This document shows, in pieces, positions 3,391-56,280 of a stretch of DNA of 64,000 nucleotides. Made by a program: the position numbers and the translations under genes. Origin of the DNA: Mobula hypostoma. Lineage: Eukaryota. The notes below the pieces were generated by a model. It had not been told where the DNA came from. It did not search any database and saw only the letters and a program-made list of their open reading frames with translations. Position 1 is the first letter of the stretch. Every line of letters starts with the position of its first letter. The stretch spans positions 10,602,001 to 10,666,000 of the forward strand of contig NC_086097.1 of NCBI RefSeq assembly GCF_963921235.1, given 5' to 3'.

Positions 3391-4812
3391 AGAACCATAG
3401 AACCATAGAACACTACGGCACAGAAACAAGCCTTTTGGCCCTTCTTGGCTGTGCCAAACCATTTTTCTGCCTAGTTCCACTGACCTGCACCTGGACCATA
3501 TCCTTCCATACACCTCTCATCCATGTACCTGTCCAAGTTTTTTTTAAATGTTAAAAGTGAGCCCGCATTTACCACTTCATCTGGCAGCTCATTCTACACT
3601 CCCACCACTCTCTGTGTGAAGAAGCCCCCCCCAATGTTCCCTTTAAACTTTTCCCCCCTCACCCTTAACCAATGTCCTCTGGTTTTTTTCTCCCCTTGCC
3701 TCAGTGGAAAAAGCCTACTTGCAATCACTCTATCTAAACCCATCATAATTTTATATACTTCTATCAAATCTCCCCTCATTCTTCTACACTCCTGGGAATA
3801 AAGTCCTAACCTATTCAACCTTCCTCTATAACTCAGTTTCTCAAGTCCTGGCAACATCCTTGTAAACCTTCTCTGCACTCTTTCAACCTTATTAATATCC
3901 TTCCTGTAATTTGGTGACCAAAACTGCAGACAATACTCCAAATTCGGCCTCACCAATGCCTTATACCATAATATTCCAACTCTTATACTCAATACTTTGA
4001 TTTATAAAGGTCAATGTACCGAAAGCTCTCTTTACAACCCTATCTACCTGTGACGCCACTTTTAGGGAATTTTGTATCTGTATTCCCAGATCCCTCTGTT
4101 CTACTGCACTCCTCGGTGCCCTACCATTTACCTTGTATGTTCTACCTTGGTTTGTCCTTCCAAAGTGCAATACCTCACACTTGTCTGTATTAAACTCCAT
4201 CTGCCATTTTTCAGCCCATTTTTCCAGCTGGTCCAAATCCCTCTGCAAGCTTTGAAAACCTTCCTCACTGTCCACTACACCTCCAATCTTTGTATCATCA
4301 GCAAATTTGCTGATCCAACTTACCACATTATCATCCAGATCATTGATATAGGTGACAAATAACAATGAACAGAGCACTGATCTCTGTGGCACACCACCAG
4401 TCACAGGCCTCCACTCAGAGAAGCAATCTTCCACTACCACTCTCTGGCTTCTTCCATTGAGCCAATGTCCAATCCAATTTACTACCTCTCCATGTATACC
4501 TAGCGACTGAATCTTCCTAACTAACCTCCCATGCAGGACCTTGTCGAAGGCCTTACTGAAGTCCATGTAGACAACATCTACTACCTTCCCTTCATCCTCT
4601 TTCCTGGTAACCTCCTCGAAAAACCCTAATAGATTTGTTAAGCATGACCTACCACACGGAAAGCCATGTTAACTCTCCCTAATAAGTCCCTGTCTATCCA
4701 AATACTTGCAGATCCTATCTCTTGGTACTCCTTCCAATAATTTACCTACTACTGACGTCAAATTTACCGGCCTATAATTTCCTGGATTTCTTTTAGAGCC
4801 TTTTTTAAACAA
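3391..4812 (-). mobile_element. 5'-truncated CR1-type LINE (RT fragment, frameshifted)
   Basis: ORFs 3961-4566 (DFSKAFDKV...GVPQ...KFADDTK) and 3594-3992 (LVRPNLEYC.QFWSP); tail (ATAGAACC)n at 3391. Confidence 0.92.
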
Positions 4813-4914
4813 TCTCAATGATTTGCAGCTGGTGGCCAATGAAACAAAGAAAACAACTAAATACTTGGTTAATCACTCTTTTCCTGGCAAACGATCGTCA
4901 AAAACAATAGCACG

Positions 4915-6850
4915 TACATACAAACGTCATTCCTACAGGAGTTATCATTTCTTCAGTATAAGTTCTTAGTTGGATATCTACGGGCTTCAGTTCAGTATCT
5001 TTGAAATGTCACACAAACTCATTTTGTAGAATGACTGAAATAGATGAGCCAGTGTCCAATTCCACATTAAATATTTTGCCGTTTAGACGTGAATGGCAAA
5101 TTGCTTGTCTATTGTTAGCTTTCACATTGTAAGTCTTCAGGCTACCTAGACTGCGTGACTCTCTTCACACATGTGGATTAGTACTCTTTTTGAAACTTGA
5201 ACCTGAATTTGATCTTCCTTTTCTTCCTTGTGCAGCCAATTTATTTTTGTCTGCCCAACGCACTTTTTTATATGTGCTCTACTTTGTTGCCTTTGAATTG
5301 AATTGAACTGAATTGACTTTATTACTTATATCCTTCATATACATAAGGAGTAAAAGTCTTTGTGTTACATCTCCATCTAAATATGCAATGTGGAATTTAT
5401 ATTAATTTATAATAAATGGTATGTACAATGGGATGGTCAATATAACATAGAAATACAGTTGTGTCAGCAGGCTGATGGCCTGGAGGAAGATACTGTCCCA
5501 GAGCCTGTTGGTCCTGGCTTTTATGCTGCGGTACCATTTCCTGGATGGTAGCAGCTGGAACAGTTTGTGGTTGGGGTGACTCGGGTCCCCAATGATCCTT
5601 CAGGACCTTTTCACACACCTGTCTTTGTAAATGTCCTGAATAGTGGGAAGTTCACATCTACAGATTCCCTGGGCTGTCCGCGCCACAGTCTGTAGAGCCC
5701 TACGATTGAGGGAAGTACAGTTCCCATACCAGGCAGTAATGCAGCCAGTCAGGATGCTCTCAATTGTGTCCTTCTAGAAAGTTCTTAGGATTTGGGGGCC
5801 CATACCAAACGTCTTCAACTGTCTGAGGTGAAAGAGGCACTTTGTGCTTTTTTCACCACACAATCAGTATATATCTCGTGAGAACTTTGGTGACGTTTAT
5901 GCCGAGGAATTTAAAACTGTTCACCCCTTCAACCCCCGATCCATTTATGTCATTAGGGGCTAGCCTGTCTTCATTCCTCCTGTAGTCCACAACTAGCTCT
6001 TTTATTTTTGCAAGTTTCCTGCATTGGTCTGGTGTATAAAGGGCCCTGACACAATGGTAACACAATTTGTTTGGCCAGACCAGTTTCTGTATAGACATTG
6101 CAATTTTGTTCATGTTCACCTTCATCCCTGGATGTAACAACAGTTGTGTCTCTCTATTCTGTTTCCATTGATACAGCTACTTCAACTGTTCTTTGATTGT
6201 GAGTTGTACTTTAGTGAGGAGCTTTTTTTGAATGCTTTCTTGGCAGATTCTGCAAATAAAGAATCTCTCATTGCAACATTAAGCCCATCTTTGAACTGAC
6301 AATGCTCAGACAACTTCTTCAATTCACCAATGTATACAGAAATTGACTCCTCTTCCTTTTGATTCCACCTATGAAACCTAATCAGCAATGGTTTTGGTTA
6401 TAGAGATCCTGTATTACTTTCATGACCTCAACAAAGCTCATTTCGGCTGGTTTGGTTGGAGCAGTTAAATTTCTAAGCAAACTATATATCTAGTTCGCTC
6501 AGCAAAACTGGCATTCACTTCTCATTGGCTATTTCATTTACTCCAAAATAGTGCTGAATTAGCTCAGTATACATGAGCCATTTGTCCACTGAGCAATCAA
6601 ATGCATCTATCTTTCTGATGTTGCCAGCAATTTCCACTTAAAAAAAATATGATTATTATCCCCTATTACTTGTTGCTTATGAACCCATGATTTTGTCTGT
6701 TTCCTGCCTTTTGAACTTGACTGGGTCTTCCATTCTGGAGAAGATGTGTTCCAATTTTTTTTTAACTCTAAGGTCTTGACTTCGTATTTTCCTTTTCTTA
6801 CCTGTGCAGTCCATTTGTTTTTGTCTGCCCAACACACTCTTTGTATGTAC
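4915..6850 (-). mobile_element. Degenerate Gypsy (Mag-like) gag-protease remnant, interrupted by Rex1-type insertions
   Basis: Gag: RFHRWNQKEEESISVYIGELKKLSEHCQFKDGLNVAMRD (6182-6388). Protease VELDTGSS near 5045-5065 and ELKPVDIQLRTYT near 4955-4995. Confidence 0.75.
5295..6010 (-). mobile_element. Rex1/Babar-type LINE 3' fragment
   Basis: KELVVDYRR...VNSFKFLGINVT motif; (AATTG)n-type tail near 5295-5315. Confidence 0.8.
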
Positions 6851-27657: not shown

Positions 27658-27941
27658 CAGTGGTCCCCAACCTCCGGGCCGCGGACCGATACCAGACCGT
27701 GAAGAATGCAGCGGTACAGCAGTAGCTGGGACGCACCCGGCATATCTTTAAGAAAAAAACCGAAATAAACAAGCTAAGTAATTAGGTGCTGACATTTACG
27801 TGCTGTGCGACACCTAATTAATTAGCTTGTTTATTTCAGCTTTTTTCTTAAAGATGTGCTGGGTGCGTCCCAGCTACCGCTGCACCCCTGCATGCTTCAC
27901 GGTCCGGTATCGGTCCGCGGCCCGGAGGTTGGGGACCACTG
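27658..27941. mobile_element. hAT/Charlie-type MITE (long-TIR foldback)
   Basis: Termini CAGTGGTCCCCAACC...GGTTGGGGACCACTG; ~130-bp inverted arms; imperfect 8-bp TSD TTTGAGGC/TTCTAGGC. Confidence 0.85.
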
Positions 27942-46062: not shown

Positions 46063-47500
46063 GTACCTCTTCCTAGAAATGCTGCCTGGCCTGCTGCGTT
46101 CACCAGCAACTTTGATGTGTGGTCCAGTGTATACGTCCTTCTTTTTATCGACCGGAGCTTTCATAAGCAAAGGTTATCTAAATTTGTCAGGCTTACCTTT
46201 CAAAAGGTTCAAAGGTTCTAAGGTTCATTTATGATCAAAGTATGCAACTCTGAAATTCTTCTTCTCCAGATAGTCACAAAACCAAGAAAGAAAAGAACGG
46301 CAGCACGATCATCAACCTCCAATTCCCTCCACAAAAAAAACAAAAATGGAACAGGCACATCAATACCCAAATCTCCTTTCCTCACACACAAAAAAAGAGA
46401 AAAAGTGACAAAAAACACAGAATATAAAAAATCATAAGACTGGAAAAAAGTCTATAGCTCAAGCCCATATCCAAATCACCGATAACGTGAGTAACATTCT
46501 CCAGGAACTGCGGCAGGCCTTTCTCTCTCTGGCAACGAGTGATCTTCGAGTGATAAATGGCAGCCTCCTTCCTCTGTAGCAGAGCGATCCTCCAGTGACA
46601 AAAAGGCAGGCAGAGCGTGCTCAAATTCCAAATTCACCTCAATGTTTCTATCCCCTCCCCCCTTTGCTTTAATTGGCGAACAATGGCGGCTTTAATCATC
46701 AAAATGGAGTCGAACATCAGCTCCCAGCCTTCTCACTGCAAGGTTCCTTATACTGCCTCTGCTTTCCAGAATCATCTCGGAGTTAAGATGGCGCTAAGGC
46801 GGCATTGATGCTGCCTGACTCAGAATCAGAATCAGAATCAGGTTTATTATCACCGGCATGTGACGTGAAATGTGTTAACTTAGTAGCAGTAGTTCCAGGC
46901 AATACATAATCTAGCAGAGAGAGAGAAAAAATAACAATAATAAATAAAATAAAACGTATTAATAAATAAACAAGTAAATCAATTAAGTTTATTGAATAGA
47001 TTATTATCTGATGACACAACAATTGTAGGCCGTATCTCGGGTAATGATGAGTTTGAGTACAGAGAGGAAATTAAGAACCTGGTGGCATGTTGCGAAGACA
47101 ATAACCTATCCTTCAACATCAGCAAGACGAAGGAATTGGTTGTTGACTTCAGAAGGAGTAGCAGACCGCACGACCCAATTTACATCGGTGGTACGCAAGT
47201 GGAACAGGTCAAAAGCTTTAAGTTCCTCGGGGTCAATATCACAAATGATCTGACTTGGTCCAACCGAACAGAGTTCACGGCCAAGAAGGCCCACCAGCGC
47301 CTCTACTTCCTGAGAAAACTAAAGAAATTTGGTCTGTCCCCTAAAACCCTCACTAATTATTATAGATGCACCGTAGAAAGCATTCTTCTCAGGTGCATCA
47401 CAACCTGGTATGGAAGTTGTCCTGTCCAAGACCGAAAGAAGCTTCAGAAGGTCATGAACACGGTGCAGCACATCACACAAACCAATCTTCTGTCCTTGGA

Positions 47501-48344
47501 ACACACATCAAAGTTGCTGGTGAACGCAGCAGGCCAAGCAGCATCTATAGGAAGAGGTGCAGTCGATGTTTCAGGCCAAGACCCTTCGTCAGGACTAACT
47601 GAAGGAAGAGTGAGTAAGGGATTTGAAAGCTGGAGGGGGAGGGGGAGATGCAAAATGATAGGAGAAGACAGGAGGGGGAGGGATAGAGCCGAGAGCTGGA
47701 CAGGTGATAGGCAAAAGGGGATACGAGAGGATCATGGGACAGGAGGTCCGGGAAGAAAGACGGGGGGGGGGTGACCCAGAGGATGGGCAAGAGGTATATT
47801 CAGAGGGACAGAGGGAGAAAAAGGAGAGTGAGAGAAAGAATGTGTGCATAAAAATGAGTAACAGCTGGGGTACGAGGGGGAGGTGGGGCCTAGCGGAAGT
47901 TAGAGAAGTCCGCTAGGCCCCACCTCCCCCGCGTACCCCAGCTGTTACTCATTTTTATGCACACATTCTTTCTCTCACTCTCCTTTTTCTCCCTCTGTCC
48001 CTCTGAATATACCTCTTGCCCATCCTCTGGGTCACCCCCCCCCCCGTCTTTCTTCCCGGACCTCCTGTCCCATGATCCTCTCGTATCCCCTTTTGCCTAT
48101 CACCTGTCCAGCTCTCGGCTCTATCCCTCCCCCTCCTGTCTTCTCCTATCATTTTGCATCTCCCCCTCCCCCTCCAGCTTTCAAATCCCTTACTCACTCT
48201 TCCTTCAGTTAGTCCTGACGAAGGGTCTCGGCCTGAAACGTCGACTGCACCTCTTCCTATAGATGCTGCTTGGCCTGCTGCGTTCACCAGCAACTTTGAT
48301 GTGTGTTGCTTGAATTTCCAGCATCTGCAGAATTCCTGTTGTTT
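47501..48344. mobile_element. Palindromic PLE insertion (arms ~47500-47897 and 47909-48307, 11-nt spacer)
   Basis: Near-perfect inverted repeat; TSD TTCTGTCCTTGGA at 47488-47500 and 48343-48355. Confidence 0.92.
48211..48246 (+). ncRNA. Minimal type-I hammerhead ribozyme in PLE (best copy)
   Basis: Stem I AGTC/GACT, core CTGACGA, stem II AGG/CCT, GAAA, palindromic ACGT stem III, GTC triplet (predicted cleavage after 48242). Confidence 0.8.
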
Positions 48345-49425: not shown

Positions 49426-51886
49426 TTGCATGCATCTTTGGAAACAGCTCTATTTCAATCTTTAATATCTTTATCTTTCCCTTTCATGGTTCTTTTGAAG
49501 ACCCTGACCTGGAATTACACGCAGACTTTGGTTCTTTGCGGGAATAGGACCCGTTCTTGGGGTTTCAGGACCAGCCGTTGTTCAGCACGCCAAGAGATCA
49601 GCCTGAGATGCAGCCTAGTGTTTGGAGGCCTAAGATCTCGGGGCTCTGGAGATAGGCGGATTGAGGGTCGATGTCATGGCAGGAGACTTGTGTGTGGTCA
49701 GGGAGGCCGGAAAATCTTTTGCTGTGGGCCCGAAGACCTGAGATCTTCGCAATCTTTGGGCACAGAGCTCGTAAAAAGCTACAAAATGGACTTTTTAACA
49801 TCATAAACCAGCGGGTTGTTATTTTGTCTCCCACTCGCTGTGAAAATGGGGACACCTCCCTCTCCTTTTTAGGGAGAGAGAGAGAACCTGTAGGTTGCTG
49901 AATGCCAGATGAAATGCGATAGTCTTTGGGGTAACTGCAAGATCTGTGTCTTTGATATTGCTTAGCTCACACTTGTGCTCCGTGGTGGGTGTGCTTTTTT
50001 GGTCAGTGGGGGGAGGGGGTATTGTTGCTCGATGCTGCTTATGCATGGGAGGGGGGAGCCAGGGGAGGGGGAGGGCTTTCGGGTTCTCACGTTTAACTAT
50101 CGTTCATTCTTTGGGGCACTTCTCCATTTTCGTGGATGTTTTGCGAAGAGAAAGCATTTCAGGATGTATATTGTATACATTTCTCTGACATTAAATTGAA
50201 CCTTTGAGTCTGCAGAACACTGAAACACCCAAACAATCACCAAACTGCAAATCACAGTATCCAACAGTTCCAGAATCACATTCAAAATGAAAAACGAACG
50301 TAAAAAGACATAAAAGAAGTGAAATATATGGTTTCATGATCTACCCAGAAGATGTCGACCAAAGGAACATTGTACGAAGTTACCATCTTGACCAGAAAGC
50401 GAAAGACAACACCTATCAGAAACATGCTATCCCTAGACATCTGGAGAGATCTGAGGCCTCTGTTGGTCAGGGTCAACCATGGATATTGCATCCTAACTGT
50501 CTATGTGATACACAAGGCAGGGCAGTATGATATGGAGAGGAAGTCCATGTTGCCTATAATGCAAGCTCCCCCTCTCCAAGCATCTGATAAACCCAAAGGA
50601 ACAGTAGAGACCGATACAGTTTGGCACCCGTAGTGCCGTAGGAGTTGCCAGTCTGCATGAACTCAACATAGGACTGCCTTAGGGATGGACCCCAACTCTG
50701 GATTTTTCCCTTGGGGTTTATTCCCAAAGGCTTTCCGAAAAGGGGGCATAGCTGCAAGGGAGCAGAGGTTTGAGATCAGAGTTTTCTTTCTCCTAGATGA
50801 GCAACCAAACACAGCTGATGAGCCCTATCTGCGTAAAGCAAATAGTTTTAAGGTGCCAGTAACCTGCCTTTGCCCATTCTCTTGTCAATAGAAATGTTTC
50901 CGCTGGGATTAGCAAATAGCCACACTTGAAAGCCAGGTGCTGGACTCGGTTGTCACAGGCTATTTGAGATGCATGCCATTGGGAGTATTCAATAACTAGT
51001 GGAAGCTTATCCCCGTTACCACCCCTTGGCTGTAACAACCTTAAGGAACCATCTAGAGAGATACAGCATGGAAAAAGCAGGACTTTTGGTCCATTGGGTC
51101 CTCACCAAATATTAAATGTCCACTTTCACACCTATCCCACCCTGAGCCATTTTATTCTTCTGCCAAATTCTACCATTCATCTACACACTCTACGATGACC
51201 CTATCAACTGAAATATTTTTAGGAATGGGCGGAATCTCACACAGCCACAAAAAGAATATGAAAACTGTCCACAAGCATTACAAGAGGTCTGCATCTGATT
51301 GTTGGTTGCCATGGTTCTGAGGTAACTTGTCAACTAGCTGCAACATCTCGCCAACCTTAAATCTTCCATCAGCCGTGTTTGTTCCAAAGGCAACAATCCC
51401 AGTCTACCCATTCAAATCTAATTCCACAGTGCTAGCAACAGCCCAAGGAATCTTTTCTGCACCTCTCTCCAATGCGGCCATATTGCTGTGACTGAGTAAT
51501 GTTCAGGATTCAAAAAGAAAAAAATTGCACAAATAGCAAAAGATGAACAAGAAACACAGAATGCAAAAGAGCAAACCACAGAGTCGCTGAATAGTACACA
51601 AATATTCAGTATAGTTCAGTTCAATTTAGCGCTGTGTTGTTTGCTGACGGCAGGCTGCAGCCAGTCCACCCTAGTCAAAATCATACAAAATAGCAATTTT
51701 AAAAAAAAGAGTAATCTGTACTTTCTGAAGGATATCACCTTTGGTTGTGCTGTTCGCTGGTGCTATCTTCTTGAGACTGCATATAACTTTAAACTGGGCC
51801 ATTATCCTCAAGAATCACCCTGAGTGATAATATCTTCTTCACCATTGAGAATGGGGAGAAAGCAGAAGAAATGTGGTTATCATTTC

Positions 51887-52109
51887 TATTGTGTCTGTGG
51901 CCTGGTTACACAACAACGCTGTTAATAAAAACGCTGGAGACGGGAGCTATGTTTCATGGTTCTCTACTGGCAGAAGCCAAACTTGACACACACGTACAGA
52001 TCAAAACATACCTTATAGCACATGCTCAATATGCGCCTAATAGCGCATTCAACGACATGTTACTAAAACATAAAGTAGTCCCTTATTATACTGTAGGCTA
52101 TCCTGTACA
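51887..52109 (-). repeat. 3' LTR (223 bp)
   Basis: Direct repeat of 55877-56093; minus strand starts TGTACA; I count about 25 substitutions and 2 indels between the LTRs. Confidence 0.93.
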
Positions 52110-52130
52110 CTCCTCCCCTTTTATTTTAAT
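52110..52130 (-). other. Polypurine tract
   Basis: Minus strand ATTAAAATAAAAGGGGAGGAG directly before the 3' LTR. Confidence 0.88.
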
Positions 52131-52307: not shown

Positions 52308-52375
52308 TTATAACTCAAGTCTCTGGGGGGGGGTGGGGTGGTCTTCTCTACCTCTCCAGGTAACGTCTGTCAATA
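52308..52375 (-). pseudogene. Gypsy pol extreme C-terminus remnant
   Basis: RRYLER*RRPP..QRLEL*, resembling the RRYPxRxRxPPxRLxL end of Mag-like pol. Confidence 0.65.
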
Positions 52376-52476
52376 ATCTTGTTTGTTTTAATACAGATAT
52401 CCATATAAAAGTCATGAAAAGTTGACCTCTGAGCATAGGAGTTAAGAAGATGTGCGCCTCCGACTTGCTAAGAGTT

Positions 52477-52592
52477 CTATGCAGCAGATCGGCTCCACAT
52501 AATGAAGACTCCTCTATGCAGCTGCACTAGATATATACACATCTTTGTGCTGGTGATTCAGCAGGAGTGCTGGGAAGATGCTCAGGAGAAGA
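52477..52592 (-). pseudogene. SUDS3: SUDS3 retrocopy, 3' part (probable 3'UTR continues to ~52390)
   Basis: SSPEHLPSTPAESPAQR then, after a deletion, STKMCIYLVQLHRGVFIMWSRSAA*; human has SSPEHLPATPAESPAQR...[24 protein letters not shown]. Confidence 0.9.
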
Positions 52593-53642
52593 CGAAGAGG
52601 CTGTCACTTTTTGCGGGACACATCATTTTGGGAGTTAAAGAAATACAGGATAAATTGGAGAACAAAGTTGCATCCTATGCTGGTCAACTTGCAAAGAGTT
52701 TGAGCAGTAACTCTGATGTGAGATCCCGCGGGCTCTCTCGGGCTGTGATTCGGGTCTTCAGGGATTGTAAAAATAGTGCAGGATGTCCGTTCTTCGGGTA
52801 GGATCTGAAAGAATGTACAATTTGCTTAGGAGAACTCAACAATCCCATCCTGCTTCCATGTGATCATTTTTACTGTTTAAAATGTATAAAGCGGTGGCTT
52901 GAATCAGGACAGCGGCTCTGCCCACTGTGCCATACTTCTCTAGGTGATGATTATGTACCAGCGGTAACAGAAGAAATAAGTGAAGCTGTAGCAAAATTAG
53001 ACATATTTCACAAAAGGTGTGAAGCATTTTTCATAGCTTCGGTTTCCATGGTCTGCTTCAAAGATGACTTGCCACCAACAAAGAAGTGGTTGGTGATCTG
53101 CTGTTTCTGCTATTTATTCGAAGGGTCTCGGCCCGAAACGTCAACTGTACCTCGTCCTAGAGATGCTGCCTGGCCTGCTGCGTTCACCAGCAACTTTGAT
53201 GTGTGTTGCTTGAATTTCCAGCATCCGCAGAATTCCTGTTGCTTGAGTACTTTACCAGTAATCGTTCACCATTTGATGAAGCGGTTGATTGAAATCCTGT
53301 TGTTCGTCCCATCGTTTTTAAACTGCTGTTAAAGTACAGTTTTGCTGATATTAAGGATCACCTGCAGTGCTATCTGTCTGGCTCAGGAGGGAAAATTCCT
53401 TCAGGTGCACATTCAGCACGTGTGAAAATGCAACAATAGAAACCTTAAAGTTTGTTGCCAGAATTCGCCTCTGTTTGGCTGCTGTTTCCCAACTTCTTTG
53501 TGAAAAAACAAGACACATTGGCTGAGGATTCAAAATATGTACGTGCAAAAGGAACTTTCCTGCAAAGGATTAAGTGTATGATTCTTAACGGAGGAAATGA
53601 TTAGTTTGAGATTTACCTTGTGCGAAAACTGTTCTGATTGAA
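52593..53642 (+). pseudogene. RNF213: RNF213 internal cDNA fragment including the RING finger (52814-52930), antisense to the element
   Basis: LFAGHIILG...NSDVRS...CTICLGELNNPILLPCDHFYCLKCIKRWLESGQRLCPLC...VCFKDDLPP...SPFDEAVD*NPVVR...KLLLKYSF...VARIRLCL...IYLVRKL; contains stops and frameshifts and no visible introns. Confidence 0.88.
53119..53248 (+). mobile_element. Short PLE 3' fragment inserted in the RNF213 segment
   Basis: Matches the PLE terminus (…GAAACGTC…CAGAATTCCTGTTG); hammerhead truncated. Confidence 0.85.
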
Positions 53643-54294
53643 TGGAGACGCTGGTCTTTTCAGAGATTTAAGCTTATTGAGAGTTTGCAGATCTTCCATT
53701 ATCTGTTCATCTGTTAACAAGTAATTTAACTTCACAGGTGCAGGTTTTCTTCTTTTGTCAGTAATTGGAACAGGGTCATTAGGTCTCCTCCTTAGTTTCC
53801 TCGTTGTTATTGACTTTACCTCCATAGAATCTCCTGTGATTTCCATTATTAGCCTCTCATTCTCAATCATCTTTTTCTTTCCTTCTAACTTAATCTTTTT
53901 ATCTTCAAATTCCTTCACTGCTGCTTTCTTCTCTTTAATATAATTCCTTTCCACTTGTTCTGTCTCCAGTTGCAGAAAAAGCTCTGCATTTCGTATTCTT
54001 TCCTTGTATTGTTGATCTAGTTTCTTCATCCCTTTCTGATACTCCTGCAAATACCTTCCTGTAACTGCTGTAGCTTTCTTTTGAGAGATGTCAATTTCTC
54101 CTGGTACATCTGGTCTTTTACTTCCAGGTAGTCTTCATCATCTTGCCTATTGGCAATATCTGTCTCCCTTGCACCTCTGTATCTTCATCCGAGTCTCAGC
54201 CACGGATACTATGTTCATCCTCATCGTCGACGCTGTCTAGCTCCTCCTCGTCATTGTAATAGTCGTCAATGGATGAGAGGAGAGTTGCAGACAT
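53643..54294 (-). pseudogene. SUDS3: SUDS3 retrocopy, 5' part (from ATG at 54294)
   Basis: MSATLLSSIDDYYNDEEELDS...MYQEKL...[51 protein letters not shown]...[13 protein letters not shown]...[11 protein letters not shown]...KRPASP; intronless; TGA at 54196-54198, two 1-nt frameshifts, ~8-codon deletion. Confidence 0.95.
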
Positions 54295-54319
54295 CTTCCA
54301 CACCGAGCTTCCCTCCTTT

Positions 54320-55494
54320 GTTGACACATCTAGTGCCTTGATGGTGTGCCAATCCAACTGGATTTTCCTGAGCCATTCACAATGGTGGTCCTCCATTTTT
54401 CAGGACATAGAGTTTCAGCTGCTGTGTTTTGTCTTTGTAGGTCACTGTCACTTTAATTTTACCTTTGGGATGCACTTTCTGTCCTGTGAAAGTCTTTAGC
54501 CGTAGTTTAGTTCGTTTCAGAGGTATGTGAGAAAACAGTCATTTGTAGTCATGTACAGCTATCACTGTTAAAGCTGAGCCTGTGTCCAACTCCATTTTCA
54601 GTCTCACGCCTGCCACTCGTGGAGTGATCCTTATTACTCTTTGATTATCTGTCTCTTTCATGCTGTGAAGTTGCAGACAAGACAATTCACTTTCATCTCA
54701 GTCATTTTCATCAGAACTGCTTTCTTCCATTTTGTGTGCATTGTTGTATTTTCCTTTCTGGGGTTTCTTGTTTCTCCGTATTTTGTCTGTGCATACTCTG
54801 CCAGTGTGGCCCTGATTGCCGCAATTTCTGCATTCTTTGTCTTTAAACCCACAGTCATCAGGGTCATGTGTTCCCACTATGGTAACATTTCTTTCCTTCA
54901 TTTCTGTTCAGTGACATTTTATTCACAGCATATTCCAGAGATTTTTGTTGTATCTCTGAAGCACCCCGTGCTGCTTTTTCCGTTCATATTGCAATGTTCA
55001 GCGCCTTCGCTAATGTAAGGTCTCTTTCACACACAAGCTTCTTCTGTGTGGTTTCACAGTGCATGCCACACACTAACCTGTCCCTCAATGTGTCCGATAG
55101 ACCAGCTCCAAATTGACAATGTTCTGATCATTTGTGCGATTCAGCACAATATTCAGAAATGCTTTCATTTTTGCTCTGATTCTGTTTGTGAAATTTAAAT
55201 CTTTCAGCAATGACCAGTGGTTTGGGGTTTAAATGCTGTTGGAGAGTGTCTAATATTTGCTTGAACGTTTTGTCAGCTGGCTTTTCAGGGGTTGTTTCTG
55301 TGCAGTAATGTGTTATGGTTCTATGGTTCTGCGTTAACAAGCTCCATAGCAACCCATATGTTTTTGCTCCCGTAATACTGAGTAAGACGCTGGCTTTCTT
55401 TTCATCATTAACACTGTTAGCCTCACAATATAACTCCACTCTCTTAGTCTTCAATGCCACTATCAAATGCTGTAATGATTCTAATCATTGCCAT
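54320..55494 (-). pseudogene. Gypsy gag-protease remnant
   Basis: ATG at 55494; RVELYCEAN...LNPKPLVIAERFKFHK...LRDRLVCG; zinc knuckle CRNCGNQGHTGRVC; protease MELDTGSA near 54575-54595; WLRKIQLDW. A short CR1 tail is inserted near 55294-55333. Confidence 0.9.
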
Positions 55495-55646
55495 CTTTGT
55501 TATGTTAATTTAGCCCAGTTTTCCCCTTGCTTTCTTTTTGACTCACGTGTCCTTTTTGCTAGCGCCACGTGTGGACACCGTCTAGATGCGTGTGTCGCTC
55601 CTTTTTATCTCCCTTCTGGATCAGGCAGACCCTCAGCCCCCGGGGG

Positions 55647-55808
55647 TCAGCGCCGTCTGTGGTCTCACCTGGATGTGCTGCGGCTCCGACTGTGTCTCTT
55701 GGTTTCCCGACGTTCCCAACCCCGGCTGTGCTCCCACTTCCTTTCAGACTCATGGCCTCACTCTGCCTCCTTCTCCCGCTCCTTGGCTCATTCCTTGCGC
55801 TCTTCTTT
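55647..55808 (-). pseudogene. ACIN1: ACIN1 (Acinus) C-terminal coding fragment in the element's 5' leader
   Basis: [50 protein letters not shown]; restoring CpG-decayed Arg codons gives a match to human ...ERAKEREK...EAER...REHSR...[24 protein letters not shown]. Confidence 0.78.
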
Positions 55809-55862
55809 CGAGTGTCGTTATCAATTAAAACACGGCGTTCTGATACAATGTAGGTTCATTAA

Positions 55863-55873
55863 CCTCGTCGCCA
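55863..55873 (-). other. Primer-binding site complementary to the tRNA-Ser(GCU) 3' end
   Basis: Minus strand TGGCGACGAGG, 3 nt after the 5' LTR; vertebrate tRNA-Ser(GCU) ends ...CCUCGUCG-CCA. Confidence 0.85.
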
Positions 55874-55876
55874 ATT

Positions 55877-56093
55877 TGTTGTGTATGTGGCCTGGTTACA
55901 CAACAATGCTGTTAATAAAAACACTGGAGACGGGAGCTAAGTTTCATGGTTCTTTACTGGCAGAAACCGAATTCGACACACACGTAAGATCAATACGTGG
56001 CTAATAGCGCATGCTCAATATGTGCCTAATAGCGTATTCAACGACGAGTTACTAAAACATAGAATATTATTATACTGTAGGCTGCACTGTACA
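55877..56093 (-). repeat. 5' LTR (217 bp)
   Basis: TG...CA termini; direct repeat of 51887-52109. Confidence 0.93.
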
Positions 56094-56280
56094 ATTTCAA
56101 ATAGTTTAGATTTTTTTTGGTCCAATTAAAAAGTAAGTATAAAACCACACGATCATACAAAAATATGATAGAGAAAACAGCTGTTTTTTGTTTGTTAAAT
56201 TGAGGTGAATTTGAGGTAAATCCAAATGGAATAGAAGAGGGAGGAGGGAAATGGAGGCTGGGCTTTGGACTACAGACAAA

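Follow-up and report, generated by a model that had tools for sequence, protein, structure and literature searches.

A SUDS3 cDNA in the pol frame of a non-autonomous Ty3/Gypsy element from rays is probably passenger cargo

We analysed a 64,000-nucleotide stretch of Mobula hypostoma DNA (contig NC_086097.1, positions 10,602,001 to 10,666,000; hereafter, the window) and found on its minus strand a 4.2-kb LTR element (56093–51887) that carries a spliced SUDS3 cDNA downstream of its protease (Table 1). With its LTRs, primer-binding site, polypurine tract, GAAAT duplicated at both flanks and Gypsy-type gag–protease (gag-PR), but without reverse transcriptase (RT), RNase H and the integrase core, this is a non-autonomous Ty3/Gypsy element. 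Element and cargo together belong to a family of LTR-mediated retrocopies like those described in the available parts of Tan 2016 (PMC5131818), and we put the probability that SUDS3 is passenger cargo of this family at about 0.7.

Table 1. Features of the SUDS3-bearing element and its flanks, in window coordinates
Feature	Coordinates	Strand	Basis
Target-site duplication GAAAT, upstream copy	56094..56098	-	Identical 5-mer at 51882-51886
5' LTR, 217 nt, TG...CA	55877..56093	-	LTR pair comparison
Primer-binding site TGGCGACGAG	55864..55873	-	10-mer also follows LTR of intact relative L001
Leader piece, third captured host sequence, sense	55623..55797	-	Matches abundant, otherwise unrelated RNA contig
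gag (ATG 55494, zinc knuckle), aspartic protease (DTG 54586-54578) and start of PR-RT linker, decayed	54314..55494	-	
5' switch point, ~7 nt common to Gypsy linker and SUDS3 5'UTR	54307..54313	-	Contig departure points
Captured SUDS3 5'UTR, 19 nt, stop-free in pol frame	54295..54313	-	Parent contig match
SUDS3 cDNA, residues 1-226: coiled coil and Sin3-binding segment	53644..54294	-	Parent protein and RNA contig alignment
Antisense RNF213 cDNA piece with RING finger	52593..53646	+	Human RNF213 3966-4127, E 1e-37
SUDS3 cDNA, resumed	52477..52601	-	Stop TAG 52479-52477
Probable SUDS3 3'UTR, no poly(A)	52369..52476	-	Inferred from position
Last integrase codons (RRYLER, PPQRLEL, stop), 3' switch back into element	52308..52368	-	Matches C-termini of L001 and P0133
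Polypurine tract	52110..52122	-	L001 has near-identical tract
3' LTR, 223 nt	51887..52109	-	LTR pair comparison
Target-site duplication GAAAT, downstream copy	51882..51886	-	Pairs with 56094..56098

The two LTRs differed at 25 of 217 aligned sites (K2P 0.127), and the insertion is therefore old. The primer-binding site is presumably of the tRNA-Ser type. The gag-PR region, which contains several stops and frameshifts, was 72–79% identical to P0131 and about 50% identical to P0132, P0133 and L001, the last three being intact relatives with gag, PR, RT, RNase H and integrase in a single ORF. The L001 polyprotein matched the element only over residues 29–401 (gag, the protease and the first part of the linker) and over its last ~16 residues, from which it follows that RT, RNase H and integrase were replaced by the cDNA. 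With P0131 as the query, two loci of 158 candidates were recovered, both distant, and a metagenome search for the pattern of the element family returned 0 stretches. A second Gypsy gag-protease remnant in the window (4907–6619, minus strand) is older and belongs to a different family; it is interrupted by LINE pieces and ends in a LINE, no LTR pair was found near it, and it yields no second junction.

The original prediction held that a stop-free frame runs from a protease motif into the SUDS3 ATG, and this was borne out: the 81 nt (27 codons) from the W of the WLRK motif (54375) to the ATG (54294) contain no stop, and the frame continues to a TGA at 54198–54196, where the parent has the codon for Arg33. 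The remaining two phases across the junction were closed after 14 and 35 codons. An open stretch of 27 codons is by itself unremarkable, and the phase match is a 1-in-3 chance event. The ORF 54396–54196, proposed to be in frame with the protease remnant, is so from the W at 54375 onwards, but its first seven residues (MEDHHCE) correspond to out-of-frame protease DNA. The protease core of this copy sits in another frame, the last break lying near 54380, and the window copy itself therefore has no Gag-PR-SDS3 ORF.

The switch point was located with contigs from four of 24 listed sequencing runs, aligned on 53300–55880; X16 and X17 are RNA runs by guess, no listed run being recorded as RNA, and the rows listed comprised 40 of 268 letter differences, 12 of 22 indels, 15 of 79 joints, 24 of 693 loose ends and 32 of 10,937 pieces. 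A parent SUDS3 contig (X17) tracked the window up to 54313 and then diverged into its own 5'UTR, and four DNA contigs (X1) tracked the element to 54307 and then diverged into sequence whose manual translation in this frame resembled the PR-RT linker as found in P0131, P0132 and L001. The microhomology of ~7 nt between these points, an approximate length that depends on alignment ends, is as a template switch would predict, and it fixed the reading phase of SUDS3. The ~20 nt of 5'UTR predicted before the ATG proved to be 19 nt by the match of the parent RNA contig, and in P0122 (Chiloscyllium) EGGLAGK stands upstream of the same Met. The annotated proteins P0121 (XP_072884955.1, Hemitrygon) and P0001 (Mobula) have the same junction phase, P0121 being the only junction-spanning protein match among those listed. 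Contig records 3 and 11 also span the junction with one gap each, attributed by us to the break that the window itself has near 54173.

From residue 1 through the stop codon ending at 52477, the SUDS3 segments were 79–95% identical to Mobula SDS3 (P0074), and the best protein matches were from Mobula; Pfam searches of the window fragments gave no Sds3 hit, and the identity of the cargo comes from the protein matches. The copy had been described as intronless from start to stop codon. The ATG, the stop and the lack of introns were all found, but the copy is split by the 1.05-kb RNF213 piece and lacks both residues 139–146 and ~54 codons from the C-terminal capped Tudor domain, the latter deleted from the resumed part between short direct repeats. 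Parent RNA contigs were collinear with 53644–54313 except for the 24-nt loss and single-base gaps, and the window was continuous at all six parental exon boundaries examined (near residues 38, 63, 81, 105, 216 and 224, as deduced from the ray and shark isoform models at NCBI), so that the exon junctions are spliced in the copy, a check that had been proposed with the prediction. A DNA duplication of SUDS3 is ruled out, introns being absent. The copy is indeed dead, with a TGA at codon 33 and frameshifts near 54173 and 54051. The loss of residues 139–146 falls in the dimerization coil (4ZQA spans 80–163), and the Sin3-binding segment (2N2H, 195–219) showed few changes among the copies.

All SUDS3-bearing copies appear, from the sequence features that they share, to descend from one founder capture. 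Residues 139–146 were absent in six of 120 listed SDS3 matches (of 702), all six being Mobula SDS3-like models; the corresponding 24 nt were present throughout the parent RNA contigs (depth 138 of 138 and 210.5 of 210.5) and missing from the DNA (depth 0 of 15,339 and 0 of 38,029). The same junction was found in P0121, P0001 and three aligned contig records, and the 24-nt loss is likewise shared. As all copies descend from a single junction, the 1-in-3 odds stand as first given, however many copies share the frame, and we rejected the in-frame copies as independent support. A single SUDS3 position was covered by 55 and 76 distinct contigs in two DNA runs, and the summed depth, relative to the median of eight listed records per run, was ~740–830x for SUDS3, ~1,300x for the protease and 60–80x for RNF213; these ratios are rough, and depth is no copy number. 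The SUDS3-bearing family is likely to number hundreds of copies and the RNF213-bearing one tens.

Because the intact relatives carry gag-pol as one ORF, the founder very probably encoded a Gag-PR-SDS3 read-through through the 19-nt UTR, as had been envisaged for the ancestral element; the entry of SUDS3 in the pol frame and the phase of P0121 and P0001 agree with this. No Gag-PR-SDS3 protein record was among the matches listed (120 of 702; 11; 4; 14), a weak negative. Both founder events, the junction and the 24-nt deletion, kept the frame, which has a chance of 1 in 9. RNAs with long 3'UTRs are subject to decay, and the in-frame stop lies 368 nt before the 3' LTR, resembling the layout of an intact element, versus ~1.3 kb if SUDS3 were out of frame. 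The frame could thus have been selected for ORF length and not for SDS3 function, any open cargo sufficing for the RNA to escape decay and keep the supply of Gag-PR in cis. We consider this explanation unlikely: the retention of gag-PR with loss of RT-IN and the two frame-preserving events are in its favour, but one junction gives no statistical power, and the RNF213 sub-lineage, with its stop at 53613 at a distance of 1.5 kb from the LTR, has multiplied nevertheless (depth ~60–80x that of a single record).

In 113 orthologues, 219 of 265 core SDS3 sites were at least 97% invariant. Changes private to one of seven copies fell at invariant sites in 76 of 95 cases, with 83% expected (P=0.50), and the individual values were 24/27 for P0036, 19/23 for P0001 and 19/23 for P0002. 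The six annotated copies in this set are biased toward open frames, and several annotated copies retain ORFs of 292–321 codons. Private changes are mostly post-insertion and carry little information on the active lineage. The 8-residue loss was present in all seven copies examined, as was P187T, which changes a position that is the same in all 113 orthologues, and S263G occurred in six of six. With two fixed substitutions and one deletion, the founder branch looks short. Since P187T, S263G and the coil deletion are common to the copies, wild-type SDS3 function was probably not kept in the element lineage.

For a neutrally evolving copy of an invariant gene, dN/dS should be ~0.5 or above. For the window versus its parent, dN/dS was at least 0.27–0.41 overall, at least 0.17–0.26 in the 5' half (53958–54294; P=0.01–0.08 against 0.5) and at least 0.58–0.83 in the 3' half, the estimates coming from base-difference counts and amino-acid differences, with halves that overlap by 30 nt and a parent contig from a related organism. 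Over the whole span, 0.1 was rejected (P<=0.0014), 1.0 was rejected at every kappa, and 0.5 was rejected at kappa 1, where transitions carry no extra weight (P=0.04), but not at kappa 2 or 4 (P=0.14 and 0.33). The low value of the 5' half may stem from decay at CpG sites together with synonymous substitutions on the parental side, or there may have been early constraint on this half. One X16 contig (RNA by guess) spanned the junction (54099–54359) at a depth of 39.9, with parent contigs at 103.9–138 and two other element contigs at ~3; none of the X17 rows listed spanned it. The X16 contig hints, if weakly, at transcription from some copy. The low 5'-half dN/dS, the frame kept twice, the ORFs of 292–321 codons and the possible junction RNA contig count against the passenger reading.

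The low 5'-half dN/dS and the X16 contig bear also on the suggestion that the SDS3 fusion interfered with silencing. The pol product is normally cleaved after the protease domain, and the junction lies directly past a complete protease domain. The protease could have freed an SDS3 lacking eight coil residues, with a dominant-negative effect on Sin3L/HDAC assembly that would ease silencing during a burst; the position of the deletion in the dimerization coil, with the Sin3-binding segment little changed, would suit such a product, as would the rank of SUDS3 among the five most retrocopied genes of cartilaginous fishes, which the available text of a preprint (10.64898/2026.06.26.734816) relates to germline availability and selective filtering. 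However, the 95 private changes carry no signal of constraint, Sds3 is required for chromosome segregation (PMC8800102, in the portion available), and known anti-silencing factors of transposable elements, as covered by the available parts of PMC6719617, are narrow in action. We regard this function as quite improbable and the suggestion as unsupported, the cargo having been damaged before it spread, later changes looking unconstrained, some cargo lying outside the fusion and no fusion record being listed.

Other host RNAs were captured besides SUDS3. The RNF213 piece is broken by a short repeat at ~53119–53248, and a 12.6-kb RNA contig was collinear with it over 53378–53646. It was inserted after SUDS3 residue 226, i.e. 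beyond the Sin3-binding segment, so that a truncated active product stays compatible with it; as this segment is spared, we also rejected the argument that the insertion proves SDS3 to have been dispensable. One end of the piece showed 3 nt of microsimilarity at the switch, and its antisense orientation is not as a simple minus-strand switch predicts. At the flanks of the insert (53643–53655 and 52590–52603), ~12 nt of SUDS3 are near-duplicated, near a parental exon boundary. The RNA contig that matches the leader piece diverged on both sides in X16 (depth ~200) and X17 (depth ~1,000); the leader piece itself had a high DNA depth and is common to many genomic copies. Its reading is Arg/Ser/Glu-rich and may correspond to the C-terminus of ACIN1; it had no PDB match at E<=10, and its atlas matches were all under 0.9. 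P0121 has the same gag start and junction followed by SUDS3 residues 1–56 and then a YBX1 cold-shock domain, a further cargo swap that places the element family in a second ray family. Repeated pickup of host RNA, in frame and out, fits passive capture, and the cargo outside the fusion frame (the leader piece, and antisense RNF213 at ~1/10 of the SUDS3 depth) counts for the passenger reading.

For one Mobula copy, two isoform models (XP_072100482.1 and XP_072100483.1; P0130 and P0036) excise the RNF213 piece like an intron, leaving an ORF of 311–321 residues, and the window has a GT at ~53615 and an AG at ~52600. The Mobula model P0001 joins the leader, at a CAG/GTGAG-like donor, to the PR-RT linker and skips gag-PR (window ~55672 to ~54334), like a subgenomic spliced RNA. 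Such models would be expected if the host had later retained one or a few copies as transcribed SDS3-like retrogenes whose spliced RNA is translated from the SUDS3 ATG and not as a fusion; this would be compatible with the passenger reading. Later host use nevertheless seems highly improbable to us: these are gene models only, changes at invariant sites occurred at the chance rate in P0036, P0001 and P0002, and the leader-linker joint was not among the 15 listed of 79 joints in the aligned contigs.

Under the passenger reading, RT in a Gypsy particle would have jumped from element RNA to co-packaged spliced SUDS3 mRNA and then back, as in the Tan 2016 model. The SUDS3 coding sequence with short UTRs took the place of RT, RNase H and almost the entire integrase; the 5' junction lies at the microhomology in the PR-RT linker, and there the SUDS3 ATG landed in the pol frame by luck, a 1-in-3 outcome of one event passed to all copies. 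The founder, very probably with a single Gag-PR-SDS3 ORF, kept the LTRs, primer-binding site and polypurine tract and was multiplied, presumably by RT and integrase that intact relatives supplied. As a passenger, SDS3 would have undergone the 8-residue deletion and two substitutions early, followed by copy-by-copy decay, and sub-lineages would have acquired further host RNA (RNF213, YBX1). In replication-defective transducing retroviruses, host cDNA likewise replaces pol in frame with gag, and a helper provides the enzymes; the element described here differs from them in having no env, a Gypsy-type gag-PR, germline copies and a cargo activity that is only putative.

The host sequence is flanked by one LTR element (gag-PR upstream; integrase tail, polypurine tract and LTR downstream; 5-nt target-site duplication), parental introns are missing, the 5' switch shows microsimilarity, and secondary retroposition with shared switch points has occurred; there is neither poly(A) nor any L1-type hallmark, the 3' end of the cDNA continuing into the integrase tail. 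A LINE-type processed pseudogene that landed in a Gypsy remnant was rejected, given the lack of poly(A), element sequence at both ends and a junction common to the copies. The LTR-mediated retrocopies in the available parts of PMC5131818 are alike in that spliced host mRNA lies in an LTR element, with microsimilarity at the switch and no poly(A), and also in having several parental genes per locus and secondary non-autonomous retroposition. In contrast to the cases described there, the present family probably has hundreds of copies in two ray families and carries a near-whole coding sequence with its own ATG, which exactly replaces RT-RH-IN and enters in the pol frame; in-frame joining was scored there relative to the parental protein, not to gag-pol. 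Maize Bs1 (available parts of PMC5131818 and PMC13317346) is also an LTR element with three host-gene pieces, common switch points and a hybrid ORF, but it has 1–5 copies and a translated hybrid gene, whereas the copy in the window is dead and the hybrid protein of its family is putative. VANC21 and VANC6, as treated in the available sections of PMC6719617, are alike only in the proposed purpose: VANC proteins are TE-specific and family-restricted, with function shown, whereas SDS3, a general corepressor subunit taken from the host, shows no sign that its function was maintained.

One capture followed by transposition suffices as a cause of the SUDS3 retrocopy rank, and element-borne copies are annotated as SDS3-like genes. 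The available text of the 2019 review (PMC6719617) gives three examples of TE anti-silencing, all from plants; anti-silencing by SDS3, if true, would be new for animals, with the factor gained by gene theft. Our literature search, thin in subscription journals, found no paper on the Gypsy-SUDS3 family, and the mapping of the junction and the third captured piece in the leader are new here. Several independent captures in one genome would make the benefit of in-frame cargo to the spread of a defective element testable. Elsewhere in the window, positions 47500–48307 form a near-perfect inverted repeat with arms of ~400 nt at 99% and a spacer of 11 nt, which may have arisen by fold-back duplication in the recent past or be an artefact of the assembly, and a second, smaller inverted repeat lies at 27658–27941.
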